DNA of 32,288 nt from Gemmatimonadota bacterium (lineage in GTDB: Bacteria; Gemmatimonadota; Gemmatimonadetes; Palauibacterales; Palauibacteraceae): assembly GCA_039588275.1 (NCBI GenBank), contig JBDHAC010000070.1, positions 1 through 32,288 of the forward strand, read 5' to 3'. How positions within the stretch are numbered: position 1 is the first letter of the stretch; every line of letters starts with the position of its first letter. The position numbers and the translations under genes were made by a program. Below, piece by piece: positions 1 through 29,695 of the stretch. The notes under the pieces are model-generated. The model was given only the letters and a program-made list of their open reading frames with translations. It was not told where the DNA came from and did not search any database.

Positions 1-253
1 GCATTCTTGTGCACGTTCACCGGATCCCCCGACGAGTAGGTTGTGAAGGCTTTAGTCACCTCCAGCTTACTCGTCGGCTTCCGGTGAACAACCATCCTGT
101 TACTTAGACCTAGCCGTCTCGTGCGTCCCAGACCCAGCCGGGGGGGGCGCGGAAGTCCCCCTCGGCTGGCTACACGTAAGAATAGGAGCCCTCGACCACG
201 ATGGCTCCTCGTCTCGTAACCCTAAGCTGTCACCCATCAGCGTTGAGTGACTG

Positions 254-1183
254 TTATTTATTGGGGTTACCGCTCAACTCCTTCAAGGCAGATCTGGGGC
301 CGACCGTGGCAACGGCCTTGAAGAAGGTGTAGCAGAACACTCCCACGTCAGATAAGACGATGCCTCGAAGGTCATCCAACCCCTTCTTCCACGCCGAAGC
401 AGTGATGTATCCGCGATCCAGAGCTTCCTCTTCGACGCCCTCCACCATCGGTATGATCGTCTTCGCCACGAACGCATCCATCACCTCAGGGCGGCTCCGG
501 TCCGCATACACCATCCGTGGTGACACGACTAGATCCACGCCACCTGCCTCTGTCATCACCGAATAGAGGCGCCGTCCGATGAGGGAGTCTCCGCCGAGAC
601 CTGCTTGCACTCGAATCAGGCAGCGCCACGCCTGAATAGCCTCATCACTCGTCGGATGAAAGTAGCAGGATCCATGGTCTCCCTCGATCACAGTCACGCT
701 CCCACCCGGCTGCACCACCCGCAAGAGCGATCGGAGAGCCCCCACAGGATCCTTCAGGTGCTCAAGGACGTGGCAAATGAAGACGCTATCGAAGGTCGTC
801 GATGCAAACGGTAGCTCGTAGAGGTCGGAGCACAGGAGGCACACGTTGTCCAATCCAAGCCCCTGGGTTCGCTCGGCGGCCATCTCCAAGGAGCCCGTGG
901 CAACGTCGCACGATAGGAAGAGCGCACCGGGACTGTTGGACGCGAGAGTGACGGTTTGGGCGCCGATTCCACACCCAAGCTCCAGGACACGGCTACCCAC
1001 GGGGAACCTCGAGTCATGGTGAAGAAGGTCTCGAACCGAGTACGCCTGATCGAGAAGACGTTGGGCTTCGCGCTCGGAGTAACCGTGGACATAGCCCGCG
1101 CTGCCTTGCCGCAACGCTTCTGCCTCCACCTCGCTCAAGGGTCTTCTATCGGACCTCCTCGCCGTCAGCCTAATCTCCTTCAC
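254..1183 (-). CDS. Class I SAM-dependent methyltransferase
   Basis: Motif I VLELGCGIG, 'FDSVFICHVLEHL' and 'VQPGGSVTVIE'. The N-terminal GYVHGYSERE segment is typical of this family. The exact start is uncertain. Confidence 0.9.
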   Translation of the reverse strand: MKEIRLTARRSDRRPLSEVEAEALRQGSAGYVHGYSEREAQRLLDQAYSVRDLLHHDSRFPVGSRVLELGCGIGAQTVTLASNSPGALFLSCDVATGSLEMAAERTQGLGLDNVCLLCSDLYELPFASTTFDSVFICHVLEHLKDPVGALRSLLRVVQPGGSVTVIEGDHGSCYFHPTSDEAIQAWRCLIRVQAGLGGDSLIGRRLYSVMTEAGGVDLVVSPRMVYADRSRPEVMDAFVAKTIIPMVEGVEEEALDRGYITASAWKKGLDDLRGIVLSDVGVFCYTFFKAVATVGPRSALKELSGNPNK

Positions 1184-1395
1184 TCAACAGTAGGAAAGCG
1201 GCCTTTCGCGGGGCAACAGGCTCCGCAGCAAGCCACGGTCTCGGACGGCCGGGGGGACCCATCTTCCCCGCTGATCGTGATCCGAACGTACGCGCAAGCG
1301 TGTGGGTGATGGACAAGCGGCTTCGGAGCGTCTACGAGGCTACCGGGATCGACCCTCCCGTGGGGAGACTCAGGAGCATCAGATCGCCACCCTGC

Positions 1396-1424
1396 TTGAC
1401 AGGGACGCCGATTCATGATAGTAT
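1396..1424 (+). promoter_or_regulatory. Sigma70-type promoter of the ArsR gene
   Basis: TTGACA (1396-1401), a 17-nt spacer, then TAGTAT (1419-1424) preceded by TGn (extended -10). Lies 28 nt before the ATG at 1453. Confidence 0.75.
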
Positions 1425-1452
1425 ATGCGCGTACACTGAAACGGATGAGGGT

Positions 1453-1749
1453 ATGAGGAGTTCCGCAGAGTTATTCAAGCTACTCTCGGTGGACACGCGA
1501 ATCGCGATCATCGAGGCTCTCAAAAAACGGCCGCGCAGCGTCGGGGGTATCGCGGAAGCGGTGGGGGTAACTCAGTCTGCGGCGTCGCAACATCTCAGGG
1601 TTCTGAAGGACGCCAGCTTGGTGACCGCCGAGCGCCAGGGTTACTTCATCTACTACACCCTGAACACTGATGCCCTCGAGGAATGCCGGACAAGGTTGAA
1701 CCGGGTCTGCACATGCGGCTGCATCGAAAGCCAAGTGGAACAAGGATGA
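1453..1749 (+). CDS. ArsR/SmtB-family metalloregulator
   Basis: LFKLLSVDTRIAII...SVGGIAEAVGVTQSAASQHLRVLKDASLVTAERQGYFIYY winged HTH, with C-terminal C...CTCGC. ATG at 1453 follows GAGGG. Confidence 0.92.
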   Translation: MRSSAELFKLLSVDTRIAIIEALKKRPRSVGGIAEAVGVTQSAASQHLRVLKDASLVTAERQGYFIYYTLNTDALEECRTRLNRVCTCGCIESQVEQG

Positions 1750-1835
1750 ACGGGAGAGGTTTTTTGCGGAGAATATATAAGTAATCGCGCAATAACTTAA
1801 ATTCTGTGTCGACTACACGGAAGGAGGAGCAGGGC

Positions 1836-2114
1836 ATGTGTTGCGAAAACGAGGGAGAAGTCAGGGGAGTGCACCGGCGAGGTGGTTGCCGGTCAGGAGG
1901 CCGTGACGATACGGGATGCAGGTGCGGTTGTAGGGAATGCCACTGCTGTGGCTGCTGCAGTTGTGGCTGCGAAGATCGTCCCTTCGGCTTTAGACGTAGC
2001 TTCCAAAGCAGGAGCGAGAGGCTCGAACAACTCGAGCGGTATCTGGCGGAGCTGGAAGCCGAAGGCGCCGGGGTGCGGGAACAGATCGCTGATCTGAAGG
2101 CAGCTGGGGGCTAA
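1836..2114 (+). CDS. Small Cys-rich (metallothionein-like) protein with C-terminal coiled coil
   Basis: Strong RBS AAGGAGGAG (1821-1829). 13 Cys in the first 45 aa, then the heptad-like ERLEQLERYLAELEAE...IADLK. Confidence 0.75.
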   Translation: MCCENEGEVRGVHRRGGCRSGGRDDTGCRCGCRECHCCGCCSCGCEDRPFGFRRSFQSRSERLEQLERYLAELEAEGAGVREQIADLKAAGG

Positions 2115-2210
2115 ACAAGTAGGCGGAGTGCGACCTGAGCTCAAGGTTTCGTAGGGTCTGGTTGGACCCTATGTGGACCCTTTAGAAGACCGTACTTCAA
2201 CGATCATCAA

Positions 2211-2300
2211 TCGGGGCGGCGAGATTCGGGGAGCTTGCGACGAGCGAGGACCGCGTCAGCGGCCGCAGCTCTCACTCACGACCTCCTGAACCCCATTCAG
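2211..2300 (-). repeat. tRNA-Pro(GGG) 3' half with 45-nt T-loop insertion, copy 1 (att-like scar)
   Basis: The minus strand reads CTGAATGGGGTTCAGGAGGTCGTGAGT[45 nt]CGAATCTCGCCGCCCCGA. There is no D-arm or 5' half. Near-identical copies lie at 13565 and 13836. Confidence 0.88.
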
Positions 2301-2551
2301 AACGAGTACGGGGCAAGATACGACAAAATGTAGTATTCACGGGGTGTTTCGGGCGTCCACCGTCGTATCTGAACTCACCGAAAACACCAGAAGATCGCAC
2401 GTTCTTACCCCACTCCACGAACTGTTCCCGGATACTGCTGGTCAGGCTCCTTGCCCCTATCTGTACGGCGAACTAGACGGTCTCCTTAGCCGGCTCTAGC
2501 TTGCGACCGATCCATTCAAAGTCGCCACTCAGGATTCCCTCGGAGGTTCCC

Positions 2552-4756
2552 GTGCTCCTCGGTCGGGTGTCTCAGACCGTACTTGGCCTCGCTCTCACCG
2601 TCCTGGCGGGTGCCTCGGGGCTGCGCGGGCAACAGGCGGCCGATTCCGCTGCGACGATTGCGCTCGAGCCCGGGCGTTCTGTCGAGCGGTCTATCGGCGG
2701 AAGCGAGGTTCACAAGTATACCGTGACCCTCAGCGCCGGGATGTTTCTCCATGTCTACGTGAACCAATTCGACGTGAACCTGGCCGTTGCTGTTCACGGT
2801 CCCGACGGGGCCAGGCTGGTGGAAGTCGACAGTACCGCCGACGGTCCCGAAGTCGTCGAGATCGAAGCAGCGAGCTCCGGTGCGTACCGACTCGAGGTGC
2901 GACGGATCTGGGAAGCGGAGGAGGAACCGTACGAGTTGCGGGTCGAGGCCCGGACAGCCTCCGAGCAGAAAGCGGCCCTCGCGGCAAGGCGGGCAGAGGC
3001 GGAAGCGACCCGCGTTTGGATCCAGGAACACGCCATCCCGCTCGCGACCGTCGAGGCGGGTCACGGCTTTGCCGACCTCCAGCCGCTCCGCGAGGTCATC
3101 GGCGACGTCCGGATCGTCGCGCTGGGCGAAGCGACCCATGGCACGAGGGAGTTCTTCCAGCTGAAACACCGTATGCTGGAATTCCTGGTGAGCGAGCTGG
3201 GCTTCGATGTGTTCGCGATCGAGGCGACCCTGCCGGAGGCGATGGACGTGAACCGCTACGTCCTCACGGGGGACGGCGATCCCGGGCGAGCCCTGGCGGG
3301 CATGTACTTCTGGACCTGGGACACCGAGGAAGTTCTGGAGCTGATCCGCTGGATGCGCCGTTACAACGAAGACCCGCAGCACCCCCGCAAGGTCAAGTTC
3401 TACGGGGTGGACATGCAGTACACCCCCCGAGCCGCGCGCGTCACGCTCGACTATCTGCGCCGCGTGGACTCGGCGGCCGCCGCCATCGCCGACTCGGTGC
3501 TCGATCCGTTGGCCGACCCCTTCCTCGCGCGGCACGTCGGCGGGTGGCCCGCGGAGCGGAAGCAGAGTCTGCTGGCATCGATACGGGAGTTGGTGGCGGG
3601 CTTCGAGTCGCGACGTGAGGAGTACGCCATGCGGTCATCCGTCACGGAATGGGACCTGGTCCGGCGGCATCTCCACGTCCTCAGACAGGCGATGGAGATG
3701 CGTGCCGGAACCGACGGCGGTTGGGCCCGCGATAGCGCCATGGCGGCGAATCTCGCCTGGATACTCGAGCGCGAAGGTCCGGGGTCCAAAGCGATACTGT
3801 GGGCCCACAACTACCACGTAAGCACCCAGCCGGGGACCACCGGCTGGCAGCTGCGCCAATGGTTCGGCGAGGAGCTCCGCGTCTTCGGCTTTGCGTTCGA
3901 CCGGGGGGAGTTTCAGGCGCGCGACTTCAGGAGGGACGGCAGACTGCGTCCCTTCCGAGTCGAGCCGGCCCCGGCCGGAAGCCTGGATGGTCAACTCGCG
4001 GCCGCTGGCCTTTCGCTGGCCGCACTCGATCTGCGGGAAGTTCCCGAAACCGGTCCCGCGGCCCGGTGGTTCAGGGCACCTCGGGCCACTCAGAATATGG
4101 GGGCGGGCTACACCGACGAGAATCCGGAGTGGTACCTATCGCATATCCGGGTGACGGACCTGTACGACGCTCTCTTCTTCGTGCGGGAGACCAGCACGGC
4201 CAGGGCCAACCCCACAGGCCAGCGTTCAGGGGTCCGGCCGCCGGCCCCAAATGCCGTCAACCTGGACTTCGAAGCGGGCGAGCCTGGTGATTTTCCGGTG
4301 GGATGGACCGCCGCCGGGGGGACCGCCCAGGTGGAATGGGATGTGGCGCTCACGCGGGAGGACGCCCGGATTGGCACGCAGGCCGTGGTCATCCGACGGA
4401 ACGACAAGGGCGGGTACGGCGAGACCGCGGGGGAGCTTCACCAACGCATCGACGCCACCCCGTGGCGCGGGCAACGCGTAACTCTCGGAGCCTCGGTCCG
4501 AATCGACGACGTGGCGGAGGCGAGCCGTGGCTATCTCTGGATGAGAGTGACTCGTCCGGCGGAGCCCTGGCCCGAGACCGTGTTCTACGAGTACATGGCG
4601 GAGCGGCCGATCACCTCACCCGAGTGGGGTGATTACGAGATTACCGCGGATATCCACGACGACGCGGGCATCATCTCCTACGGCTTCGCGTTCGTCGGCC
4701 CGGGACAGGCCTGGCTCGACGCGGTGTCGCTCGGGCTGGACCGCAGAAGCCCTTGA
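2552..4756 (+). CDS. Secreted erythromycin-esterase-family protein with extra N- and C-terminal beta domains
   Basis: Motifs IVALGEATHGTREFFQLKHRMLEFLV, FAIEA, RDSAMAAN, LWAHNYH and YDALFFV, plus a signal-peptide-like N terminus. Probable start is GTG 2552 after GGAGG (2542-2546); the ORF is open from 2501. Confidence 0.88.
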   Translation: MLLGRVSQTVLGLALTVLAGASGLRGQQAADSAATIALEPGRSVERSIGGSEVHKYTVTLSAGMFLHVYVNQFDVNLAVAVHGPDGARLVEVDSTADGPEVVEIEAASSGAYRLEVRRIWEAEEEPYELRVEARTASEQKAALAARRAEAEATRVWIQEHAIPLATVEAGHGFADLQPLREVIGDVRIVALGEATHGTREFFQLKHRMLEFLVSELGFDVFAIEATLPEAMDVNRYVLTGDGDPGRALAGMYFWTWDTEEVLELIRWMRRYNEDPQHPRKVKFYGVDMQYTPRAARVTLDYLRRVDSAAAAIADSVLDPLADPFLARHVGGWPAERKQSLLASIRELVAGFESRREEYAMRSSVTEWDLVRRHLHVLRQAMEMRAGTDGGWARDSAMAANLAWILEREGPGSKAILWAHNYHVSTQPGTTGWQLRQWFGEELRVFGFAFDRGEFQARDFRRDGRLRPFRVEPAPAGSLDGQLAAAGLSLAALDLREVPETGPAARWFRAPRATQNMGAGYTDENPEWYLSHIRVTDLYDALFFVRETSTARANPTGQRSGVRPPAPNAVNLDFEAGEPGDFPVGWTAAGGTAQVEWDVALTREDARIGTQAVVIRRNDKGGYGETAGELHQRIDATPWRGQRVTLGASVRIDDVAEASRGYLWMRVTRPAEPWPETVFYEYMAERPITSPEWGDYEITADIHDDAGIISYGFAFVGPGQAWLDAVSLGLDRRSP

Positions 4757-4776
4757 GATTAAAGAGCCAAGGGGAA

Positions 4777-4823
4777 TGGAGCCGATCGGATTCGAACCGA
4801 CCACCTCCTGAACCCCATTCAAG
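4777..4823 (-). pseudogene. Chimeric tRNA 3' half (Pro GGG anticodon arm with Ala-type acceptor end)
   Basis: The minus strand reads CTTGA-ATGGGGT-TCAGG AGGTG GTCGG-TTCGAAT-CCGAT CGGCTCC-A. The 5' half is absent. Confidence 0.75.
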
Positions 4824-4836
4824 CGGCGCAGCACCC

Positions 4837-5045
4837 GTACACTTCAGTACACTTCGATACACACCGATTTCGGCGTTTTAACGTCCGTACACTTCGATAC
4901 ACTCCTCCTCACTCTGTGACAGCTGGCGTGACAGTTCGGTTCCGGACTCTTCGCCACCCCCAGACCCGCTGATAGGCACTCAGGCGGCGCAACGTTGACT
5001 TCGATACCACACCGATTTCGCCGTGTTGACTTCGGTGCTGACTTC
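4837..5045. repeat. Cluster of short direct repeats (candidate integrase arm/accessory sites)
   Basis: GTACACTTC at 4837, 4847 and 4887; GTGACAG at 4916 and 4928; ACTTCGATAC(C)ACACCGATTTCG at ~4851 and ~4998; TGACTTC three times in 4996-5045. Confidence 0.7.
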
Positions 5046-5196
5046 CTGCCGAGATCAAGACCACCCAAGGAGGCAGGCGCTCAACGCCTGAGACAGGATC
5101 GGCCGGTCGCGATCGACGTCTCGTGGCGCCCGCGCCGGAGCACGTCGTGCGGGCGGGTCCAATTCGATGAACACCCGTTCTCGAAGCTCCGCGATC

Positions 5197-7185
5197 CTAT
5201 CGGATCACGACCGGCACCCGCATGACCACCGGAGGTCGATTGCGCATGAATGTGCTCACCTCAAGCGTCAGCTCTTCGACTGTCTCCGCGATGATCTCGA
5301 AGTCGTAGGTCTCTCCCGCTCCCAGGTACTGCTCGGCGGGCACCTGGATCGCCTGGTGCGGAGCCACCGCCGCGCCGTCCTTCGAGTAGCGGCGCCACTC
5401 GACGAGCTCGTCGCCTCGCAGGAGCCGGATGTTCTGGTTGTTGCTCGGCGTGATGTTGATGAAGCGGAGCAGGTGCGCCTTGCCACGGGCGAGCTCGAGA
5501 GGGGGTGGCTCGGCGCTCCCGTTGAGGAACGGGGGTGCATCCTCACCCGGGCCTCCCCATCCGAGGAGGAGAACGTGATCCGTCTCGGCATCGTGCTCTT
5601 CACCCGGCTCCAGCACGATGAGCGGCGCGTAGAGTCCGGACGAGAGCTGGGCGGCCTCCTCCATGTGCGTGTGGTAAATGAAGGTTCCTGCCCGGTCCGG
5701 GGTGAAGCGCACCACGAACGAGTCGCCCGCTGCGATGGCCGGTGTGAGTCGGCTCCCGGCCCCGCTCCAGCCTGCAATTCCGTCGTAGATGGCGTCGAGC
5801 TCGATCCCGTGCCAGTGCACTGTGATGGCGATCGGAGTGCGGTTGACCACCGTGACCTCGACGGGCTCGTCCCGCTGGAGGATGATCGGCGTGCCCGGAA
5901 TGAGTACCGAGTCGAGCGCGGGTGGCTCGGCACCCTCCTGGAGAATGTAGCCGTACGCCGGGTCATGGCCGAAGTAGTTCTCGCGCATGTTCGCGTATAC
6001 GCGTAACGCGCGCCGCTCGACATCCTCGGGCTCGCGCAACCCCTTCCCCTCGGGGTCTCTGACTAGAACGCCCATCATGAGCCCCGCCATCCCCTGGTAG
6101 GCGTGCTCGTGCATCATCTCGTGACCGCGCTCCTCGGCCCCTGGGAAGGCCCCGTCTTCTCCGTGCACGATCGTCTCGGGGCGTCGCACGTGCTGCTCGG
6201 CGCTGATGTGCGCGATGAAATGGCAGTGGAACAGCCAGTGCCCTTCCCGCTTCGGCAGCCAGCTGAAGGTCATCGTGGTACGCGCCGGCATGTGTTCGGT
6301 GACGGCGAGCCGGTGCTGCTCCGGCGTATAGACCGTGTCCAATCGGGCGTCCCCGCGCGCCTCGACCTGGTAGTAGAAGCCGTGGAGGTGCATCGGGTGG
6401 GGGGCGGGGCTGACGTTCACGACCCGCACACGCACCGAATCACCCACCACCGCGTCGATGGGCTCCGTGAATGGCCACGAGAGCCCGTTGATGAGGAACG
6501 TATGCGCCGGTTCCTCGCGTTGGGCCTGCACGTCGGCCTGACTCACCCAGAGGCTGACCACCAACACCCGGTCGTCGGCGGAGCCGCCGGGTGGATCGAC
6601 CACGAGCGCCCCCGAGAGGGGTGAATCCCGAAAGATCCCGGGGCGCTCGGGGGGCGGGCCGAAATCGACAGCGCGGCCGAAGTAGAAGTAGCTCCCCGGG
6701 GTCGACGCCCGGAACGCGATCTCTCGCGTGGCACCGGCCGGGATCTCGATCGGCTCGTGCTCCTCCCCGTCCCGATCGTGGAGACCCTGCAGCGTCAGCG
6801 GCCCGTCGATGGTGTTCGTAACGGTCAGGTGGACGTCCGCCCCCGACTCGACCCGGAGGAGGGGCGCCGGTGCCTGAAGCGGACCACCCTTCTCCGCGAG
6901 CGCGATGACGTCGAAGCCCGGCCCGTCGGCCCCCTGCGGGTGGAAGAGCCCGCGACGCGCCTCGATCTCGACATAGAGCACCCCGTCCCGGAACTCGCCC
7001 GCCGGTGTGCGGTTGTCGTTCGGAAGAACGGTCTCGGGCGGACGGTCGCCCGTCGCGAGCCACTCTGCTTCGTTCGATCTGTTCGACGCGGGCGGCCCGC
7101 CAAGGACCGCAGCAAACGCGGCGATCGGTGCGATTGAGGCGGCCAGGACGAGAGAGTGGCGACCACGGGTGAAGTCGATGTGCAT
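5197..7185 (-). CDS. Multicopper oxidase, apparently four cupredoxin domains
   Basis: Copper motifs HPMHLHG, WLFHCHFIAH, TVHWHG and FIYHTH, plus an N-terminal signal peptide. Confidence 0.9.
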   Translation of the reverse strand: MHIDFTRGRHSLVLAASIAPIAAFAAVLGGPPASNRSNEAEWLATGDRPPETVLPNDNRTPAGEFRDGVLYVEIEARRGLFHPQGADGPGFDVIALAEKGGPLQAPAPLLRVESGADVHLTVTNTIDGPLTLQGLHDRDGEEHEPIEIPAGATREIAFRASTPGSYFYFGRAVDFGPPPERPGIFRDSPLSGALVVDPPGGSADDRVLVVSLWVSQADVQAQREEPAHTFLINGLSWPFTEPIDAVVGDSVRVRVVNVSPAPHPMHLHGFYYQVEARGDARLDTVYTPEQHRLAVTEHMPARTTMTFSWLPKREGHWLFHCHFIAHISAEQHVRRPETIVHGEDGAFPGAEERGHEMMHEHAYQGMAGLMMGVLVRDPEGKGLREPEDVERRALRVYANMRENYFGHDPAYGYILQEGAEPPALDSVLIPGTPIILQRDEPVEVTVVNRTPIAITVHWHGIELDAIYDGIAGWSGAGSRLTPAIAAGDSFVVRFTPDRAGTFIYHTHMEEAAQLSSGLYAPLIVLEPGEEHDAETDHVLLLGWGGPGEDAPPFLNGSAEPPPLELARGKAHLLRFINITPSNNQNIRLLRGDELVEWRRYSKDGAAVAPHQAIQVPAEQYLGAGETYDFEIIAETVEELTLEVSTFMRNRPPVVMRVPVVIR

Positions 7186-7276
7186 GTGCGTTTTCTCCTA
7201 CGCGCGCCGCCGACGAGGTCGGGGCCGGTCTTGGCCTCTGGACGACGCCGGAGGCCATCGTGACAGGTCGATAAGG

Positions 7277-10192
7277 TTACTCCTGGTCCAGACGCGGTAC
7301 GTCTATCTCGAAGCCGGGATACACCTGGCGTCCGAGCTCGTTGGGATCCACGAACGACAGATTCTGCCGGTACATGATCTCCGGCGAGGGCCTCAGGTAG
7401 ATCGCGCTCACCGCCTCGTCGTCGGCATCCGCGGATGCCACCTCGGATCGTGCGTGGTAGTCGGCGTCCTCCACGCGATCCGTACACTCGACGACCTGCA
7501 TCATCCCCATGTCTTCATGCAGCAGGATGTGGCAATGGTGGACCCACGTTCCGATGAAGTCATCGAAGCGCGTGCGGAATACCACACGGCCTCCGTTCCG
7601 CGGGATCGACACCGTGTCCATCCAGCGTGGTTCCGGGAGGATGTTGTGTAGCTCACCGTGCTCGTCGGGCACCTCGATCCGAATAACCCACATGGGGTTG
7701 ATGTGGATGTGGAACGGATGGTCGCTGCCTTTCGACGTGAGCATGAACTCCGGGTCTTCCCAAAACCTCCGCTGCCCCTCGGCGCGGGACATGACGTAAG
7801 GGTAGTAGTGGCCAAGATAGGATCCGGGCTGTGGGAATCGCTCCCGGTCGGTATGCCCCCACAAGGTCTGTGAGTTGTTGTACAGCACCCATTCTTCGGC
7901 AGTATTCACCAGCACGCGGGCCCGCCGGGGATCATAGGGCATGAACTTACGCGGCAACTCAGGATCCGGATTGCGCGCCAGATCGAAGTCCGGGTTGATG
8001 GCCATCGTGCGCGTGAGGTTGGGCAGCAGCACAGACACCCCGTCCTGCATGCCCCACAGAAGGTTCTCAAGCTCGGGACGAGCTTCGGCGAAGCCCTCGG
8101 GGGTCCGTATGCAGGGGAAGACCGCACCTCCGGTCCCGGAGTAGGAGATCACGCGGGTCCGGGCGCTGCCCGCGTCGACCCTGGTGCGTCGAGCTTCCTC
8201 CGGCGGGACCCTGAGCTCTTCTTCTTTGACGGGCTGCAGAAGTGGCGGGACGGGAGGCAGACGATCTCGGAGGCTGAGCACGTCGAAGTCCCCTCCCTCC
8301 ACCGGCTTGCCGCTGACGTGGATGTAGGCCACGACGACGTCGAAGTCGGGCCGGAACTCCGCGACGATGCCCCTCGCGATCTCGGTCTGCAGTTGCCCCT
8401 GGAAGTTGTCCGTCTGGACGTGCGCCTCCTGAGCGAAGATCGTGAATGTCTTCTCCGCCGCGTCGAGGGGGGCCTTGAAGAAGAGGTCCGTCCGGTTCGC
8501 GTTCCCCAGGTAGACTTCGTTGGGGCGCACGAAGCATCGCCGCAGTGAGTCGCCATCCCGGAAGCATGCTTCGTACGCGCGCAGGCGGGCCCGCGCCTCG
8601 TCCTCCCCCTCTTCGGCTGGCGTCGTGAACGGGTTCCTCGTCCCCGGGTTCTGTTCCGACAGGTCCTTGATCGTATGCCGCGCTTCGCCGTTTTCCTCGG
8701 TCACGAGGGTCATGCCGTCGAACGAGAGCTGGTGGAGAGGGAGCTTCGCCGCCTCGATCTCCGCCAGGGTGACGGGCTCCAGCCGGCGTCGGCGGTCCTC
8801 GCCCTCGCCCTCCGCGACGACGCGCCACATGCGATTGCGGCGCTGAACGAATTGCCCCTCCAGGACCATGAAGCGCTTGGTGCCGCTGCCGTCGACGCTC
8901 CCGTTCAGCACCCGCCAGCGCTCCACCGCACCCGGTCTCATCCGCATCACGCTCGCCGGTTTCACACCGTTCACGGCCGTGAGCGGCGGGAACCGCAGGT
9001 TGTTGCGGCGCTCTCCGGCGTCCAGATCCAACGGTCCGACGAAGACCCGTTGGATGAGCACGAGTCGCTCGCGGTAGTCGTGCGGCCCCGTCCTCGTTTC
9101 CGGGTCGGGCCATGATTCGCCAGTCAGGGCGCGGTTGATCGCTTCGTCCACATCGCCTTCCACGATCAGGAAGCCGGCCATGCCGCTCGCGACCTGATCA
9201 TGCGTGGAGCCGTGGCTGTGCGGGTGATACCAGTGCGTGCCGGACGGGTGGGGCATCACGCTGCCGTCCTTCTCTAAACCCAGACGGTACGCGTATTCGA
9301 GCTCCCCCACGTGCTCATGCTCTCCCAGGGTCCCCAACTCGGGGTCGCCCGAAGCCTGGCGGGCTTCCCAGTCGGCGCGCGGCAGGATGCGGAGCAGCAC
9401 GTTGTCGGAGTGCGTGCCGTCCGGGTTGGTCTCGGGGGCCACGTGCAGGCCGTGCGTGTGGATATTCGTGACGTGCGTCGCGTGCTGTCCGTTGACGTGC
9501 TGCTTCAAGCTCCATCCCGGACGCACCTCCGGATGGATGACCTTGAGGAGCTGTTCAGGAAAGAAGAAGGGGTTGCACGGGCGCGGATCGTTCGGATCTC
9601 CTCCACGCACTTCCGCCTCCACGAGGCGGCACACCTCGCGATCCGTATCGAGCGGTAGATCGACCGGATCGGGACTGGGGCCGACGTGTGTTTCCTGTTC
9701 GTCGAGGGGGAGCGTATTGCGGATCCGGATCCTGAGGACGTCGTCGTTCCGGACCCGGACTGTCGGGCCGGGGCTCGCACCGTTGTAGCTGAAGATCGCA
9801 GGGGCCGGGTTCCCGGGCGACGGCGATGGTCCCGGATTCTGATGCCGGATCAGGTTCAATTCGAGGTGCTGGCCGGGCCAGTGATCCGGCCGCCACGTCC
9901 AGGGCTCCTGCCAGTTCTCTGCCCCTACGAGCTCGGGGTCGACAAGGTCGCCTATCTCGGGGGGCGATGCCGCCGCCCGGGCCGCCGCTGCTGCGGCCTC
10001 CGAGCCTTGGCCCCCTTGCGTCCCGTCGGCGCCGGGTGGCGTGCCTTGCCCCTCGGGCGACGGACCCTGCTCGGGCTGGACTGGAGGCGCACACGCCGCC
10101 AATGAGGCCGCTACGCTCGTCGCACTCCACTTGAGGAAATCCCGTCTGTCGGGCGAAGGCGATCTGGAGTCTCCGCAGGGATCGTTGCTCAC
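7277..10192 (-). CDS. Large Tat-exported multicopper oxidase (probable lipoprotein)
   Basis: Probable GTG start at 10192 after GGGAGA. Twin-arginine DRRDFLK and lipobox-like LAAC. Copper motifs TNIHTHG, HWYHPHSHG, HPFHIH and HHCHILLHEDMGMM. Confidence 0.9.
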   Translation of the reverse strand: MSNDPCGDSRSPSPDRRDFLKWSATSVAASLAACAPPVQPEQGPSPEGQGTPPGADGTQGGQGSEAAAAAARAAASPPEIGDLVDPELVGAENWQEPWTWRPDHWPGQHLELNLIRHQNPGPSPSPGNPAPAIFSYNGASPGPTVRVRNDDVLRIRIRNTLPLDEQETHVGPSPDPVDLPLDTDREVCRLVEAEVRGGDPNDPRPCNPFFFPEQLLKVIHPEVRPGWSLKQHVNGQHATHVTNIHTHGLHVAPETNPDGTHSDNVLLRILPRADWEARQASGDPELGTLGEHEHVGELEYAYRLGLEKDGSVMPHPSGTHWYHPHSHGSTHDQVASGMAGFLIVEGDVDEAINRALTGESWPDPETRTGPHDYRERLVLIQRVFVGPLDLDAGERRNNLRFPPLTAVNGVKPASVMRMRPGAVERWRVLNGSVDGSGTKRFMVLEGQFVQRRNRMWRVVAEGEGEDRRRRLEPVTLAEIEAAKLPLHQLSFDGMTLVTEENGEARHTIKDLSEQNPGTRNPFTTPAEEGEDEARARLRAYEACFRDGDSLRRCFVRPNEVYLGNANRTDLFFKAPLDAAEKTFTIFAQEAHVQTDNFQGQLQTEIARGIVAEFRPDFDVVVAYIHVSGKPVEGGDFDVLSLRDRLPPVPPLLQPVKEEELRVPPEEARRTRVDAGSARTRVISYSGTGGAVFPCIRTPEGFAEARPELENLLWGMQDGVSVLLPNLTRTMAINPDFDLARNPDPELPRKFMPYDPRRARVLVNTAEEWVLYNNSQTLWGHTDRERFPQPGSYLGHYYPYVMSRAEGQRRFWEDPEFMLTSKGSDHPFHIHINPMWVIRIEVPDEHGELHNILPEPRWMDTVSIPRNGGRVVFRTRFDDFIGTWVHHCHILLHEDMGMMQVVECTDRVEDADYHARSEVASADADDEAVSAIYLRPSPEIMYRQNLSFVDPNELGRQVYPGFEIDVPRLDQE

Positions 10193-10506
10193 GTGACTCG
10201 GTCTCCCGTTAGGCCATCTTCGGAGTGGGTCCGGCCTGCCTCGGAGACCAAAGACCCAAGGAATGCAAGCTCGAAAGATATCAGCCGAGGTCGGGTGTGC
10301 AGCCCCCGGGTCCGAATGCACTTCGGCCATTGACATGGCGAGCACCGTGCTTGACCGGCCGTGCAGGGCCCCCGCACGTTGCGTCCCCGACGCCCGTTCG
10401 CATGGAGAGGACATCGGCCACTGCGGCACCAGGGCCGGAGACGGGCCAGTGTCAGCCAGCTCTCTGAACGACCCGCCCGAGTTCGAGCCGGAGTAGAATC
10501 GACCCC

Positions 10507-13254
10507 GTGAGAACTGCCTTCTTCTTGTTTCGAATGCCGCGAGGGCTTTGCGGCCTCGCCGTTACGGTCCTCGTGGCTGCTTCGTTCACAGCTGGGGCCG
10601 CGTTGCTCTCCGCACAGGCCGTCACGGGAGAGGTGTCGGGGCGCGTGAGGTCCACCGACGGCGCTCCGCTCGCCGACGTCGTAGTCACGGTTACGGGCGT
10701 AAACCGCCGGGACGAACACGGCATCCTGACTGACAGCCGGGGCGCCTTCCGCTTCCCGGCCCTGCCCGTAGGAGAGTACTCGGTCCGGCTGAACCGCATC
10801 GGTCACCAGACCGTCGTCTACACCGGTGTGCGGGTCCACCTTAGACGCACATCCTGGCTGGGCGAGATCACCCTGCCAGTCGCCGCCGTCTCCATGGAGC
10901 CATTGACGGTCGAGGTGGGCGGCACCCCGGTCGATCCGACTCGAGCGGCCGTCGGCATGACCCTGAGCGCGAGCGAGTTCCGCCAGCTCCCGACCGACCG
11001 CGACTACAAGTCGATCATACAGCTCCTCCCACACGCCAACGCGAGCTTCCTCGGGGATCCCGTGAACGTGGCCGGCAGCACGGGACTCGAGAACGCGTAT
11101 TACGTCGAGGGCGTCGACGTCACCGACGTCTACCGGGGCCGGGGCGGGACGACGCTGCCGTACAACTTCGTCGAGGCCGTGGAGCTGAACGTCGGCGGCT
11201 ATGAGGCCGAGTACGGCGGCGCGCTGGGCGGAATCGTCAACGTCGTCACGCGGTCCGGCACCAACGAACTGCAGGTATCGGGTTTCGGGTACGTCACTGG
11301 CAGCGGCCTGTCCGCAGATCCGGCACCCGTCCCGGGGGTCCAAGAGCGGGCCGGCGTCGAAGAGCTCGATTTCGGGGTGAGTGTCGCCGGACCGGTCGCC
11401 CGCGACCATGTGTGGTTCTTCACCGCGTACAACCCAACCTTCGTGCGCGAGGATGTCCGCCTCCCCGAGTTTGCACTCCAGGAGGCTTCGCTCACCCGGC
11501 ACGTGTTCGCGGCCAAACTCGACTGGCGCGTGTCGGCCCGCGCAGACCTCGCGTTCGCCGTCTTCGGCGACCCCACTAGCGAGCGCCGGGTCGCCCCCCC
11601 CTCTGGGGGGGTTCAGCTGCAGAACCCTGATCCGATCCTGAGCCGTCACAACAAGGGCGGTGTCAACGCGTCGCTCCGGGGGACGGTCCGGATACACGAG
11701 AAGCTCGTGCTGGAGGGATCCCTCGCGCACCACCAGGGGCGCGAGGACCTCGAGGGGGCCACCGAACTCGGTCGCCGGGAGCCCGTCTTCCTGGACCGAC
11801 GGAACCTGCCCCGGATCCTCCTCTCCGGCGGGCACCGAGACGACCAAGAGCTGGCCAGCGCGCGGAACTCCGTGAAGCTGAAGGCAAACTTCTTTGCAGG
11901 CGGTCACACGATTGCAGGAGGTCTACAGTATCAGGACATTCGGCTCGACGTGCTGAACCTGGAGGATCCCGGTCAGGTCATCCGCACCGCCGACTCCCTC
12001 TACGAGGCCTCCTTCTTCAACCAGGACTTCACCGTCCGTAGCCGGGTCGTGAGCCTGTTCCTCCAGGACTCATGGGCCCTCACGGACCGGCTCAGGATTC
12101 TTCCGGGCCTGCGCTGGGATGGGCAGTATCTGATCGATCAGAACGGGGCCGTCGGCCAGCGCATCGCGGACCAGTTTCAGCCACGTCTCGGGTTCACGTA
12201 CCTGGCCGGCAGAGAGGGGCGTCACAAGATCTTTGGCCACGTCGGCCGTTTCTACCAGCAGCTGGCGCTATTCTGGTCGACGCTCGGACTGGCCGGCACC
12301 GATCAGCGGCAGGCGTTCTTCCACCGGGATCCGCGCGTATCCACCGATTCCCCCGACTCCGTGCGGGTGTTTGCCGACCCGGCGCAGATACGGGGCGGTG
12401 TCGAGGATCTCGAGGGGGAGCACCAGGACGAGTTCGTGCTGGGATACGAGGCGGCGCTCGGGAGCGCGTTCACGGTAGGGGTCCGGGGGATCCACCGCTT
12501 GCTCGGGGCGAGCGTGACCACTGCCTTTCAACTCGAGGGCGAGCTGACGGGCGGCAACCCGGGCCGAGGCCCTCTGAGTCACCTTCCCGAGTCGAAGCGG
12601 ACGCATACGGCCCTCGAGCTCACCCTAGGGGTCCATCGGGCGGGGCTACGCGCGATGGCTTCGTACGTCCTTTCCAGAAGCCATGGCAACTACCCCGGGC
12701 TTTTCGCTGCGGATGCGGGCGGCCTTCGAGGTGGCAGCTTCGGCCCGAACAACAACCAGTTCACGTACTTCCCGGTCCAACAGGTCAACAGCGAGGGTCT
12801 GCTGCCCAACGACCGGACCCATGTCTTCAAGCTCTTCGGTGCATACGAGCTGGCTTTGGGGTTGACGATCGGCACCTCCGTCGTCGTCCAGGCCGGGACG
12901 CCGCTCAGCGAGTTCGGGAGGGTACCGAGCGGATTCAACACGCCGCTCTTTCTGGAGCCGCGTGGCTCTGAAGGCCGCTCGCCCGCCGTCTGGAACCTCG
13001 ACCTGCGGCTCACCTACGATCTTCCACGGAGCCTGCCGGGGCGGCTCATCCTGGACATGCTACACATCGGGAACCCGCAGGAGGCGGTGCGTTTCGACCA
13101 GCGGCGCTTCAACGGGGCGCGTGGCTCTCCCTTCGACTCGTTCGAGCAACTCGTGGCCAGTCAGGTCGGTGAGCGCCCGGCGTTCGGCACGCCCATCGGC
13201 TTCCAACCCCCTTTCACGGTCCGGCTGGGTTTCGAGACGGTCGTGCTGCCGTGA
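10507..13254 (+). CDS. TonB-dependent receptor with N-terminal carboxypeptidase-regulatory-like domain
   Basis: Signal peptide, GEVSGRV...GAFRFPALPVGEYSV domain, plug signature GGYEAEYGGALGGIVNVVTRSG, barrel strands FLQDSW and FQPRLGFTY, and C-terminal VRLGF. Confidence 0.9.
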   Translation: MRTAFFLFRMPRGLCGLAVTVLVAASFTAGAALLSAQAVTGEVSGRVRSTDGAPLADVVVTVTGVNRRDEHGILTDSRGAFRFPALPVGEYSVRLNRIGHQTVVYTGVRVHLRRTSWLGEITLPVAAVSMEPLTVEVGGTPVDPTRAAVGMTLSASEFRQLPTDRDYKSIIQLLPHANASFLGDPVNVAGSTGLENAYYVEGVDVTDVYRGRGGTTLPYNFVEAVELNVGGYEAEYGGALGGIVNVVTRSGTNELQVSGFGYVTGSGLSADPAPVPGVQERAGVEELDFGVSVAGPVARDHVWFFTAYNPTFVREDVRLPEFALQEASLTRHVFAAKLDWRVSARADLAFAVFGDPTSERRVAPPSGGVQLQNPDPILSRHNKGGVNASLRGTVRIHEKLVLEGSLAHHQGREDLEGATELGRREPVFLDRRNLPRILLSGGHRDDQELASARNSVKLKANFFAGGHTIAGGLQYQDIRLDVLNLEDPGQVIRTADSLYEASFFNQDFTVRSRVVSLFLQDSWALTDRLRILPGLRWDGQYLIDQNGAVGQRIADQFQPRLGFTYLAGREGRHKIFGHVGRFYQQLALFWSTLGLAGTDQRQAFFHRDPRVSTDSPDSVRVFADPAQIRGGVEDLEGEHQDEFVLGYEAALGSAFTVGVRGIHRLLGASVTTAFQLEGELTGGNPGRGPLSHLPESKRTHTALELTLGVHRAGLRAMASYVLSRSHGNYPGLFAADAGGLRGGSFGPNNNQFTYFPVQQVNSEGLLPNDRTHVFKLFGAYELALGLTIGTSVVVQAGTPLSEFGRVPSGFNTPLFLEPRGSEGRSPAVWNLDLRLTYDLPRSLPGRLILDMLHIGNPQEAVRFDQRRFNGARGSPFDSFEQLVASQVGERPAFGTPIGFQPPFTVRLGFETVVLP

Positions 13255-13532
13255 TTGGAGGCTGATCGGCAAGCTGGCGCAGGCCACGGCAATCGGGTGG
13301 CCCTCAGGGGACGGGGTCGTCGCTCCGCCGGCATTCGCAGTTGATGACGGGGAGTTGCGGGACACTGTCAATCGTGCGCCGTACACACCCATCAGTGGCC
13401 GAGAGCTCGCGCCTGGCAATCCCTCAGCGGGTAGGGCTATGAGTTGACGCAGAACAAGACGGCCGCTCGATCCTGCACCCACTGCGTGACAGTCTAGTCA
13501 AATCGAAGAAGAGAAGGAGGGTCCAGATGCAC

Positions 13533-13558
13533 GAAAGCCCGCATGGTTGCGGGCTTTC
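13533..13558. terminator. Intrinsic terminator-like hairpin directly 3' of tRNA-Pro fragment copy 2
   Basis: Perfect 11-bp stem GAAAGCCCGCA / TGCGGGCTTTC with loop TGGT, 6 nt from the fragment's 3' end. Confidence 0.65.
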
Positions 13559-13564
13559 TCGTAA

Positions 13565-13653
13565 TCGGGGCGGCGAGATTTGGGGAGCTTGCGACGAGCG
13601 AGGACCGCGTCAGCGGCCGCAGCTCTCACTCGCGACCTCCTGAACCCCATTCA
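13565..13653 (-). repeat. tRNA-Pro(GGG) 3' half with 45-nt T-loop insertion, copy 2
   Basis: Same as copy 1. The insert at 13583-13627 is identical; the T-loop reads ATTTG instead of ATTCG on the + strand. Confidence 0.88.
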
Positions 13654-13735
13654 ACCGCTCTCCGCGCCAAGGAACAGCGACGCCGTGGACCCCATATGGA
13701 CCCCACGGCGCTTTTTAGAAACTGCGTAATGTCAA

Positions 13736-13779
13736 TGCGCCCGGGAGAATTCGAATCCCCAACCTCCTGATCCGTAGTC
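13736..13779 (-). pseudogene. tRNA-Arg(ACG) 3' half, degenerate (att-like scar)
   Basis: The minus strand reads GA-CTACGGA-TCAGG AGGTT GGGGA-TTCGAAT-TCTCC CGGGCGC-A. The 5' half is absent. Confidence 0.75.
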
Positions 13780-13835
13780 GGCCGCGTTGTGCCCAATTTG
13801 TGCCCAAGACATTGACTGAGTTCCCGTAACTCTAA

Positions 13836-13927
13836 TCGGGGCGGCGAGATTCGGGGAGCTTGCGACGAGCGAGGACCGCGTCAGCGGCCGCAGCTCTCAC
13901 TCGCGACCTCCTGAACCCCCCACTCAG
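13836..13927 (-). repeat. tRNA-Pro(GGG) 3' half with 45-nt T-loop insertion, copy 3
   Basis: The insert at 13854-13898 is identical to copies 1 and 2. The anticodon region is altered (extended C run, then CACTCAG on the + strand). Confidence 0.85.
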
Positions 13928-14005
13928 TGTGTACGGGCGTTTCGAGCCGTTTCACGCGAACCTGTCATAAGGCTCGGGTCCTAATCGAAATCGCCCCCGT
14001 CGGGA

Positions 14006-15368: not shown

Positions 15369-17171
15369 AGAAGGTCGCCCGCGAAAAGAACGGGCTGCGA
15401 TATGAGTACATCCCGCACCCAAAGGGGCCAGGTGAAGGTGTATGCGCGAGTAAAGCGGCGGCTGGAGCAACACCTTGACTATGCGGATGTGGGCGCACAC
15501 GCCGTGATCGCGGCGTTCGTCGTTGTCACCTACGTGGCCCGCGCGTTCGGGCCCTGTCCCTCGGCGTACGCCACATTGCGCACCCAGCTGTGGAACTCGG
15601 TCGCGACTTCCTGCTGTTCGGCTTCCGTGTCGAGCAGGTGCACGATGGCGAGTTGACCGAGATCCCGGTTCGTGTGCTTAGCCGCGTGGACGGCGACAGC
15701 CTGCGTGTCGAAGTCCTCGAAGGCGACGAGTTCGAGGTCGCCGGCAGCCCCCACGTGATCGACCCACGGTGGCAGCCGCCGCTGCTCGACAAGATGTGGA
15801 GCAGAGCGGGGGTCGTGGCGCTCGTGCAAGGGGAGATTCCTCCCACGCCGGCCGAGGTGTATGCGCGAGTAAAGCGGCGGCTGGAGCAACACCTTGACTA
15901 TGCGGATGTGGGCGCACACGCCGTGATCGCGGCGTTCGTCGTTGTCACCTACGTGGCCCGCGCGTTCGCCATATCTCGGTCTTCTCGGTCCGAAGGGTAC
16001 AGGGAAGTCCGTCACGCTCGAGACAGTGGAGCGGCTCGCGCTCAATGCCTATAAGGGCCGGGTGACGGCGGCGGCGCTCGGGGACACGACTTCCGCGCAG
16101 CGGGGAACGGTGTTGATTGACCAAGCACACCGACTCCCCTACGAGCTCCTTGACCTCGTGGTGGACGGATACCGCCGCGACGGCGGACGTCGACGCGTAG
16201 TGGATTCGGACCATCGAGGGCAGCCCCACGAGTTCGAGACATTCGGTCCGAAGATCGTCGCCTCCGCGGAAGGGATCGACCCGGACCTCAAGGATCGGCT
16301 ATTCGTGATCCACACAGCCCCGAGCGCGCGGCCTGTGCAGCCCCTCCCCGCACGGGACGACGAGTTCAGGCAGCTCCGCAGTGACTTGTACACGATGATG
16401 CTGAGCCACTGGCCGCTGTTCACCGAGGCCGCTGGCCGCCTAGAGAACGGGGCGACGGTCCGTAACCGAGCCGACGAGCTTTGGGCACCACTCGAGGTGG
16501 TGCTCACGGTTTGCCAGGCCCCGGCCGAGGAGATGGAGGCGGCTCGTGCGCTCTACAAGCGGTCGCTCACGGAGACGCTCGCCGAGCTGGGCGATTGGGA
16601 GCTGGCCCTCCTGGATGAGTTGGACGAGCAGATCACCACGGAATCGGTTGAGCTGACCAACGATGCGCTGCTTACGGCCGTCCTGAGGCGGCTCGACCTG
16701 CCTGAGGACGCACCAAAACCAGGTCCGCGGTGGCTCGGGACTGCGCTGGACAAGCTGAACCTTCTCGACGGCAAGAAGCGGCGGCAGATAGATGGGAAGC
16801 GCATCCGCGTCTACGGCTTCAGCCGCGCTCGCGTGCGAGGCCAAGTCCAACGGTTTGGACTGCCCACCCAAGGTGACCGACCTCCCCCTGAGGGGTCGGG
16901 CAGCGATAAGGATAATGCCAACAACGATATACAGGGCGCTGCCCGACTGCCCGACCGTTCAGCTGGCGTCCAGAATGGGGGGTCCGCCGACCAAGTGCTG
17001 CTAGCGGAAGCCGCCGGCCCCGTCTGGGACCGGCTCTGGGAGCTCGAGCCCGAAGGAGATGGGCCGCTCATGCGGCAGTTCATAGCCGAGGTCCACAGCG
17101 GCGTCACGCTGGACGATTTGGTGCACTGGTGTGAGCGGCTGGGAATTGGCCGCGGGGGCGGGGCGGCGTGA
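15365..17171 (+). pseudogene. Disrupted DUF3631-like P-loop NTPase (replication/helicase-type)
   Basis: Walker A GPKGTGKS, Walker B-like VLIDQA, and GYRRDG, FGPKIVAS, DRLFVI, RADELWAPL. Interrupted by a 123-bp self-derived insertion (15437-15559) and an apparent 8-bp deletion after 15968. Repairing both gives one 563-aa ORF. Confidence 0.75.
15436..15968 (+). repeat. Exact 114-bp direct duplication (15436-15549 = 15855-15968)
   Basis: Base-by-base identity from AGGTGTATGCG to GCGCGTTCG, offset 419 bp. Confidence 0.95.
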
Positions 17172-19051: not shown

Positions 19052-19145
19052 GGGGGATGATTCTGGTACCTAAACTGGAGCACCGAACGCAAACCGAAGC
19101 CGAGGGCGTGCGCATAAGGCGCACTAGCGCAGTGAGTTATGTGAG

Positions 19146-19218
19146 TGCGCCGCCAGGGAATCGAACCCCGAACCTACGGATTAAGAGTCCGTTGCTCTGC
19201 CAATTGAGCTAGCGGCGC
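19146..19218 (-). tRNA. tRNA-Lys(CTT)
   Basis: GCGCCGC acceptor stem, anticodon loop CTCTTAA, GGTTCGATTCC T-arm. Confidence 0.96.
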
Positions 19219-29143: not shown

Positions 29144-29695
29144 ATGTCGTTCAGACATTGGCTTGGATCGGTGTTGTTCGTCCTCCTTTGCGGTGCGGCC
29201 ACCCCACTCGTGGCTCCCGCCGCTCCGGGCGGGCCCCCGCATGACGCGGCGGCCCGCACCCCCGCTGCCTGCTTCCTGCCCCCCGAGGTCGTCGCGCTGC
29301 AATCGACGCAGAGCGCGCCGGGCGGGCGCGGGAGCATGACCCTCCTGATGAAGAATTCACCCTACGGCGTGAGCGTCGACGCCGATGGGCACTATGCCTA
29401 TGAAGTCATCGTGGAGGTCACCCGGCTCAGGCGGCGCGGGGGCGCTAGCTACGTCGTGTGGGCCGCGACGCCCGAGCTCGACCAGGTCGCGAAGCTGGGA
29501 GCGCTGGGTGATGGAAGTCGAGTCACGGGCACGGTGAGCTGGAACAAGTTCCTCGTCTTCGTGAGCGAGGAGACCTCCCCGGATGGCGAAACGTGGTCAG
29601 GGCCGATCCTGCTGACGGGTCTTTCCCCCAGCGGCCGCATGCACACCATGGCCGGCCACGGACCCTTCGAGGACGTGGATTGCCAGTACTTTTGA
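29144..29695 (+). CDS. Secreted hypothetical protein with C-terminal MHTMAGH motif
   Basis: RBS GGGAGG, ATG at 29144 and a signal peptide. The stop overlaps the TTG of the next gene. Confidence 0.75.
   Translation: MSFRHWLGSVLFVLLCGAATPLVAPAAPGGPPHDAAARTPAACFLPPEVVALQSTQSAPGGRGSMTLLMKNSPYGVSVDADGHYAYEVIVEVTRLRRRGGASYVVWAATPELDQVAKLGALGDGSRVTGTVSWNKFLVFVSEETSPDGETWSGPILLTGLSPSGRMHTMAGHGPFEDVDCQYF

Follow-up and report, generated by a model that had tools for sequence, protein, structure and literature searches.

The Gemmatimonadota family Palauibacteraceae carries arrays of gene cassettes that have no integrase of their own and are joined at 3' halves of tRNA genes. The array described here lies in a stretch of 32,288 nucleotides (nt), referred to as the window, which is the entire contig JBDHAC010000070.1 (C70) of assembly GCA_039588275.1 (source genome G000; 103 contigs, 86% complete). 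Such arrays are real and family-wide; they are integron-like in layout and partly resemble stacks of cis-mobilizable elements (CIMEs), and they are not integrons. The cassettes are probably non-autonomous units flanked by attachment (att) sites; a visiting integrase would have moved them and piled them up at tRNA-Pro(GGG), and part of the stack would now ride in an island at tRNA-Lys(CTT).

The relatives compared were all Gemmatimonadota and formed sets of 114 family genomes, 145 order genomes and a 401-genome phylum sample. Viral contigs, metagenome loci and contigs of sequencing runs were also scanned. Other genomes are labelled G, contigs C, loci L and sequencing runs X. The stretches used for the census of units were selected for holding Pro sites and the genomes are incomplete; a missing match is not equivalent to absence.

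The original prediction had placed five tRNA 3' halves on the minus strand of the window, and all five were confirmed at these positions:

2211-2300, minus strand: F1, tRNA-Pro(GGG) 3' half from the anticodon stem, with a 45-nt T-loop insert at 2229-2273
4777-4823, minus strand: F2, hybrid of a Pro(GGG) anticodon arm with a T arm and acceptor of Ala(TGC) type; its outer flank (4747-4776) is the left end that adjoins Ala halves in G013 and G001
13565-13653, minus strand: F3, tRNA-Pro(GGG) 3' half, with a T-loop insert at 13583-13627
13736-13779, minus strand: F4, tRNA-Arg(ACG) 3' half, 46/46 identical to the intact gene on G000:C12
13836-13927, minus strand: F5, tRNA-Pro(GGG) 3' half, with a T-loop insert at 13854-13898 and a degenerate anticodon loop

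Each fragment holds one copy of ACCTCCTGA, always on the same strand. Shuffled sequences held 0.22 copies on average, and none of 100 shuffles reached the five copies of the window. The original prediction had spoken of three different tRNA identities; they are Pro(GGG), present three times, Arg(ACG), present once, and the Pro/Ala hybrid junction. The Ala(TGC) type of F2 was assigned from relatives, because no Ala(TGC) gene was found in the G000 assembly. The two marks said to unite the fragments, ACCTCCTGA and an AA beside the discriminator, are indeed present, yet both also occur in the intact Pro and Arg genes and were therefore inherited by descent. The insert of F1, F3 and F5, which had escaped the original prediction, replaces one T of the T-loop and is identical in the three fragments (46/46 bases); the intact tRNA-Pro(GGG) of G000, on C62, does not have it. 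Neither ARAGORN nor Rfam detected any of the five fragments; the Rfam matches, of tRNA type or weak, were confined to the intact cluster, with none at the fragments or the insert.

The blocks between the halves hold cargo and putative cassette ends, which fall into a few types that we labelled A to E:

254-2114: distal cargo block, with a methyltransferase (minus strand, stop codon at 254), an ArsR-family regulator (1453-1749, plus strand) and a small Cys-rich open reading frame (ORF; 1836-2114, plus strand)
2161-2180, minus strand: C-type paired arm repeat, GGGTCCA twice, left end of the distal block
2301-2414, minus strand: B-type right end, with a single TGGGGTAA arm where a pair is usual
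2501-4756, plus strand: gene of the erythromycin-esterase family (PF05139), start codon uncertain, stop codon 20 nt from F2
4822-4934, minus strand: A-type right end, with a paired CTGTCAC arm (4914-4934), two sets of 10-bp GTGTAC-type repeats and a fixed distance to the anticodon loop
5197-7185, minus strand: multicopper oxidase 1, cargo
7277-10429, minus strand: multicopper oxidase 2, cargo
10507-13254, plus strand: TonB-dependent-receptor-like gene, cargo
13486-13564, minus strand: A-type left end, with a hairpin at 13533-13558 (z -5.5 when folded as DNA) and one CTGTCAC arm (13486-13492)
13654-13735, minus strand: cargo-free unit, a C-type left end (arms 13686-13705) joined directly to a Pro core
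13780-13835, minus strand: cargo-free unit, a D-type arm pair, TGGGCAC twice (13788-13807), between a Pro half and an Arg core

The cargo was as originally described: a methyltransferase with an ArsR regulator, an erythromycin esterase, and two multicopper oxidases with a TonB-type receptor. Starting from the Lys gene, the order is integrase element, degenerate Pro core, D-type stub, Arg core, C-type stub, Pro core, the complete A-type unit with its three genes, the Pro/Ala hybrid, the esterase unit, a Pro core, the C-type left end and the metal block. Five end types are mixed in the window. Only in block 4824-13564 do the two ends match; those of the other four blocks are mixed or partial, the esterase unit for instance having an Ala-type left end and half a B-type right end. 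Upstream of F5 no arm of types A to E was found, and the far end of the distal block lies beyond the contig, which stops at the start of an IS481-like transposase.

The claim that the blocks lack an integrase of their own also held. Neither a tyrosine integrase nor a remnant of one was found in 1-13930 by tblastn with the local integrases or with a hidden Markov model built from them, so that the decayed integrase in each block, which had been named as one of the observations that would refute the cassette idea, was seen in none of them. The sole tyrosine-recombinase match on the contig is the gene at 17810-19051. Among the ORFs given to Pfam, only cargo functions were recognized, and no integration or transfer genes. 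No serine recombinase of PF07508 was present in G000 (at 86% completeness); PF00239 was not searched genome-wide.

The most informative ends were those of A type. With the right end at 4822-4934 as query, matches were obtained in 18 of the 145 order genomes, 17 of them in the family, and the A-type arm pattern was found in 3 genomes of the 401-genome phylum sample, all within the family. A Pro anticodon motif follows 69 of 102 A-type arm pairs; the 33 without the motif are left-end arms, truncated ends or chance matches. The distance from arm to core was identical (115 nt as counted) in 57 of these 69, across 16 genomes and the metagenome locus L104, while 7 were shorter by 10, 20 or 50 nt and 5 were otherwise different. 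In 14 pattern-picked A-type copies from the genus, mean identity was 85% over the end versus 45% over the 120 nt of cargo beyond the outer arm; the same end is thus re-used around unrelated cargo. Left ends of the hairpin type were less regular: among 51 of them, 22 have the second arm 62-75 nt beyond the tRNA end and 2 have it 49-50 nt beyond, and in 27 it was not found. In the A-type core, TGA/TCA stems enclose a 7-nt loop. A lambda-type att site is built of arm pairs, periodic repeats and a 7-nt loop flanked by inverted stems, and Williams is said to have described an anticodon-loop class of tRNA integration sites. Judged from their sequence, the A-type ends would qualify as lambda-type (arm-binding) att sites.

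As the original prediction would have it, comparison of the locus among relatives revealed a block with breakpoints at the fragments. Block 4824-13564 recurs in G001: on G001:C91 the oxidase 2 and TonB genes are 85-89% identical and stand between the same two ends with different neighbours, the likeness to the window starting at the F3 anticodon arm and stopping at the F2 core. Contigs of X2 and X4, from two studies, link oxidase 1 to the left A-type end with the other two genes missing; in X2 it is linked to the right A-type end as well. These joints may come from other organisms, because the likeness is 88% and the sides measure 27-134 letters. A TonB homologue is present in the unit immediately behind the intact tRNA on G004:C260. 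The cargo-free units recur too: the junction at 13654-13735 is found in G002:C20 (91% over 234 bp), and G001:C38 has a unit resembling 13780-13835 together with a full integrase with the same D-type arm. For the esterase, one further match was obtained among the 114 genomes at E<1e-80, and no Pro core motif was present in its flanks.

Full arrays that begin at an intact tRNA-Pro(GGG) were found in relatives (G001:C34, G004:C260, G048:C99, G051:C281, G091:C211, G109:C242, G112:C73 and L104), which bears out the proposal of an accreting array of integrase-less cassettes with att-type junctions. On G001:C34, seven halves of one orientation come after the intact Pro gene, 1.2-6.1 kb apart. The census comprised 133 sites and 59 units of less than 15 kb, from 15 genomes and one metagenome contig. 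No integrase match was found in 57 of these 59 units between consecutive sites (median 3.1 kb), a count in which some units are composite, since degenerate sites were overlooked by the finder, one unit is a 26-nt duplication, and the 15-kb limit excluded a unit of G000:C12 that holds an integrase remnant. Integrase-free units occupy the first position behind the intact tRNA in G001, G004, G048, G051, G091, G109 and L104. The 19-nt Pro core is present in 53 of the 114 family genomes, with 13 copies in G001 and G048, 11 in G053, 10 in G013, 5 in G086, and 4 in G014 and G109; of the 30 g16 genomes with a match, 26 have a single copy. Relatives differ in cassette content and order, as seen from the regrouped oxidase/TonB block of G001:C91, an empty Lys site on G001:C84 and the range of 1-13 Pro cores per genome.

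In the same genomes, parallel arrays of Ala(TGC) and Gly(CCC) halves were observed at L047, L048, L051 and L036 (G001:C96; G013:C6, C53, C95) and at L027 and L057 (G001:C99; G002:C71). Many units (G001:C34, C89; G002:C9, C20; G000:C98) hold paralogues of about 870-1030 amino acids, about 70% alike in DNA, whose N-termini we take to be kinase-like. G000 itself has further tRNA 3' fragments of Arg ACG, Arg CCT, Leu CAA, Met, Pro and Ala type (C12:11963-12005, C12:28846-28887, and on C53, C17, C98, C21, C43 and C83), and G000:C12 has, behind tRNA-Arg(ACG), a tandem of the conventional kind that includes an integrase remnant (C12:27783-28121).

We considered where the exchange takes place and which recombinase might perform it. 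According to the original prediction, the integrase at 17810 moves all five units through a crossover in the shared ACCTCCTGA. A crossover in that motif was not supported: the anticodon and T-arm sides name the same tRNA at 129 of 131 junctions (distinct sites without an insert before the motif), the two hybrid exceptions being F2 and an intact Arg gene in G013. We also rejected the idea that arrays mix only tRNAs with CAGGAGGT, as motif-less fragments of Lys, Ile, Glu and Ser tRNAs occur in or beside the same arrays. The agreement at 129 junctions and the motif-less fragments argue that exchange is tRNA-specific, at the anticodon loop, and that F2 is a rare hybrid. Of 16 matches in viral contigs, 12 were Pro(GGG) halves that began at the anticodon stem or loop, and 6 of these 12 were less than 3 kb from an integrase. 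The shared motif may nonetheless ease retargeting between tRNAs. F2 is a true Pro/Ala hybrid, broken inside CAGGAGGT, and the B-type right end precedes Pro, Arg and Ala anticodon loops (2, 2 and 2 of the 6 copies with the motif used), thus serving three motif-sharing tRNAs. C-type left ends adjoin both Pro and Arg halves, the repeat being found after such halves on G000:C12, G001:C89 and G001:C94. Such sharing of end types would be expected if one core half-site permits retargeting.

The integrase at 17810 has an att pair of its own, at tRNA-Lys(CTT), with a different arm repeat:

17810-19051, plus strand: tyrosine integrase of the tRNA-Lys(CTT) island
19063-19084, plus strand: E-type arm repeat of the Lys island, with a match that adjoins the Lys 3' half at G000:C12:62783-62825
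19145-19218, minus strand: intact tRNA-Lys(CTT), the tRNA-side att of the enclosing island

The part of the island between 13930 and 19144 holds the integrase and a DUF3631-like ORF. The half at G000:C12:62783-62825, with the same arm beside it, is the only other Lys(CTT) 3' half in G000. G001:C84 shows the corresponding empty site: behind its intact Lys gene comes the sequence that adjoins the C12 fragment, and synteny continues in the genes beyond (84% over 6.2 kb). The terminal part of this integrase is also present in G002, together with the same distal att. All 5 better-assembled relatives carry Lys and Arg(ACG) on one strand, with Lys 0.4-32 kb upstream, which matches the implied order from C70 to C12, and Pro(GGG) is hundreds of kb from Lys in the four of these relatives that have a Pro(GGG) match. 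On account of the Lys att pair, the empty site and the Lys/Arg order, the most likely place of the array is inside a Lys island that measures at least 24 kb and is remote from the array's own tRNA, a placement made across an assembly gap. A rearrangement between dispersed att sites would fit the arrangement of C70 and C12 too.

Homologues of the 17810 integrase at E<1e-60 are scarce, being found in 5 of the 114 family genomes, where they adjoin Lys (G080), Arg(TCG) (G001, G079) or Pro(TGG) (G006) genes. Among the five, G001 is the only array-rich genome, and its homologue stands beside tRNA-Arg(TCG); at this threshold none was found in array-rich G013, G014, G048 or G053. The protein matches no integron-integrase model. 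It is very unlikely that this enzyme moved the five units. Being the only integrase on the contig speaks for it, as do the F2 hybrid and the B-type end; its dedicated att pair and arm, a tRNA-Lys(CTT) without the motif, a G080 homologue that is likewise at tRNA-Lys and the rarity of hybrids (2/131 sites) all speak against. We infer that the 17810 integrase is not the cassette recombinase, though able to carry the array as cargo, and the Lys island could move the enclosed array in cis. An exact 114-nt direct duplication (15436-15549 and 15855-15968) was noticed at the start of the DUF3631-like gene of this island; it is either a recent duplication or an assembly slip.

No insert of the kind seen in F1, F3 and F5 was present in any of 26 intact Pro(GGG) genes. 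In those fragments that were inspected, the insert substitutes for one T, and several sequence families exist. Gly(CCC) and Ala halves have the T-loop insert as well, and variants of it are found in Arg and Leu halves. Its presence across several tRNA types indicates either a separate small mobile sequence or spread by conversion. The inserts fold no better than shuffled sequences. An insert would probably disable or fix the site that it occupies.

A full cassette would consist of a left end (tRNA 3' half, terminator-like hairpin and arm), the cargo, and a right end (arm pair, 10-bp repeats and anticodon-loop core). A lambda-type tyrosine integrase, supplied from elsewhere, would recombine the 7-nt anticodon loop (ATGGGGT for Pro-GGG), restoring the tRNA gene and shifting older cassettes downstream. 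The cassettes may still be mobile today, and this stretch is probably a displaced and partly decayed piece of an array. A more far-reaching version, which we put forward tentatively, is that of a lineage-wide capture system of standard-length, integrase-free cassettes, which would be to tRNA-targeting integrases what miniature inverted-repeat transposable elements (MITEs) are to transposases. Cargo placed between two att arms would possibly be traded among genera, retargeted by swapping the 7-nt loop, locked by hairpin inserts in tRNA loops, and moved as whole arrays inside islands.

Several observations weigh against visiting-integrase mobilization of the cassettes. Mobilization in trans, as originally proposed, is a conjecture for which neither a circle nor a helper was found. 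No integrase stood beside any A-type end in the genomes, viral contigs and metagenome loci examined, and no parent element with A-type ends was found. A PF00589 search of G000 and 15 relatives gave no A-type arms in the flanks examined, which were those of many of the matches, G017 (52 matches) and G091 (30 matches) being covered only in small part. In viral contigs, two exact patterns had no match, and none of 8 matches to a looser arm pattern was followed by a tRNA core. The metagenome scan yielded 8 loci, none with an integrase match, and the genome scan 30 rows, mostly known arrays, with three integrase matches (G001:C38, G109:C242, G112:C73), none attached to an A-type arm. Circles were not seen in the run contigs, which cannot show them, and one joint that goes back fits a tandem junction equally well; of 21 runs with matches none contained half of the words searched for, and no contig of four runs spans the stretch. 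The joints of oxidase 1 in the runs have the low likeness and short sides mentioned above. The ends are not always present: four other units have cargo that also occurs elsewhere without them, and no such ends were seen around the oxidase and TonB genes of G002 in the stretches examined. Cargo with and without ends fits gene capture between ends and also movement of the cargo by other means. The regions were chosen for Pro sites, in incomplete genomes, and the link from C70 to C12 spans an assembly gap. As many as 80 of 137 Pro fragments depart from plain loops (a non-plain T-loop or an insert behind the anticodon loop, including some point-mutated or truncated T-loops), mostly through hairpin inserts that should disable the site. 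Finally, B-type units keep integrase remnants (G000:C12, G001:C38, G013:C43).

These remnants indicate that plain decay has occurred in the B-type family, and we therefore considered ordinary decay of tandem islands, in which each block would have arrived as an autonomous integrase island, lost its integrase and become fixed, the ends being relics. A full integrase (G013:C45) and integrase remnants are associated with B-type arms, and the whole integrase of G001:C38 with D-type arms; the latter enzyme has relatives at E<1e-30 in only 6 of the 145 genomes. Descent from autonomous elements is thus visible for the B- and D-type families, not for A type. The mixture of five end types and two cargo-free stubs in the window and the many cores with inserts are also what decay would leave, and decay of this kind is the route to CIMEs described in PMC5704250. 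Yet the absence of integrase matches extends to the supposedly youngest units, those behind an intact tRNA, homology ends at the outer arm, and 57 of 69 copies keep one spacing despite sequence differences of about 15%. Decay as the whole explanation is rather unlikely. Still less probable is a resident platform of integron style, in which a host recombinase (XerC/D or IntI-like) would capture and shuffle cassettes at tRNA-Pro. The array-bearing genomes G086, G114 and G094 show just two PF00589 matches each, of XerC/XerD strength, and IntI-like proteins exist in G001 and G002, with scores below the curated cut-off (219 and 206 versus 265 bits). However, the arrays have no recombinase gene beside them, their sites lack an attC-like fold, the ORFs of single-ORF units run in either direction, and most g16 genomes have the tRNA without an array. 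The cassette core is, we presume, also unlike dif. Mis-assembly at the 90-nt repeats, which would have placed the Pro fragments behind tRNA-Lys, is hardly credible. The assembly is fragmented, the intact Pro gene is on another contig and no run contig bridges the stretch; against this, the repeats are short, their flanks differ, the F4-F3 junction exists in G002 and a unit like F5-F4 in G001. Mis-assembly would, moreover, relocate the array and not abolish it. Visiting-integrase mobilization of non-autonomous cassettes remains the reading that we favour.

Integrons and their attC arrays are made of small units of one to a few genes, with repeated joints and variable order. The likeness to integrons that had been proposed holds for this layout. 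It does not extend to the parts: no integrase match was present beside the Pro arrays on G001:C34 and most others, and none of the sites folded had an attC-like hairpin (F5 as DNA, z -0.47, equalled by 59 of 200 shuffles; A-type end, z +1.79; one strand folded per site). Cargo has no polarity, single-ORF units (ORFs picked mechanically) pointing against the tRNA in 10 cases and with it in 11. The cassettes have instead a terminator-like hairpin at each left end and arm-type ends of about 115 nt. The integron-integrase-like proteins of G001 and G002, of about 410 amino acids, are at L061 and L071 (G001:C18, G002:C196), not beside arrays.

As described in two papers, CIMEs and microCIMEs keep attL and attR without integration genes, stack at one tRNA end, and can be carried in cis by a neighbouring integrase element (PMC5704250, PMC7563491). 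Block 4824-13564 is likewise att-flanked and free of integration genes. In these descriptions, CIMEs derive from integrative and conjugative or integrative and mobilizable elements and lie farthest from the target gene, whereas integrase-less units here fill arrays including the first position, have uniform ends, and gave no parent in our searches. Additive flexible genomic islands at tRNA genes, with partial-tRNA repeats, are known from Alteromonas (PMC4898812), Actinomarinales (PMC7771536) and Methylopumilus (PMC10872708). A fixed tRNA with partial-tRNA repeats is found at tRNA-Pro(GGG) in our relatives, while the fragments of the window are behind tRNA-Lys instead. The passages on these islands give the tRNA repeat only, with no fixed-length, arm-bearing ends and no recombinase named. 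In Prochlorococcus, successive tRNA integrations of Tycheposons leave partial tRNAs through the islands, much of whose DNA is outside intact elements (bioRxiv 10.1101/2020.12.28.424599); unlike the cassettes, Tycheposons encode their own integrase and often replication genes. The ssrA islands of Dehalococcoides stand in tandem between direct repeats, and 15 of 31 lack an integration module and are proposed to be cis-mobilizable (PMC3146451); they have a transfer-messenger RNA target, a serine recombinase and a 20-bp repeat, all different from what is seen here. A literature search found nothing on such arrays in Gemmatimonadota, on fixed-length integrase-free tRNA cassette ends or on loop inserts, subscription papers being mostly outside its reach.

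Other features of the contig deserve mention. The transposase start at 1-115, presumably of the IS481 family, is inserted at the same spot of a repeat (108-155) as on G001:C34. This repeat belongs to a second, non-tRNA family with 19 copies in the stretches examined and at most 3 per contig (G000:C53, C73, C38; G001:C39, C52, C60, C89, C34, C53; G015:C5). On G015:C5 it reads as the final codons of a gene in a long open frame, which we take to be helicase-associated-domain-like. A second cassette system may use this repeat as its att site. Outside the island, at 29593-31443, the contig has one more multicopper oxidase gene, the third.

The fixed geometry of the ends makes the helper a defined search target, namely an integrase binding CTGTCAC arms and the Pro(GGG) core. 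If these conclusions are correct, island finders that rely on integrases would miss the cassettes, and assemblies would break inside the arrays. They would also provide a mechanism for additive tRNA islands, which have been described but are mechanistically open. Should the capture-system version be true, it would represent a functional analogue of integrons built from different parts. If the cassettes are still mobile, the family has a dedicated route to collect accessory genes, among them oxidases, receptors and signalling proteins.

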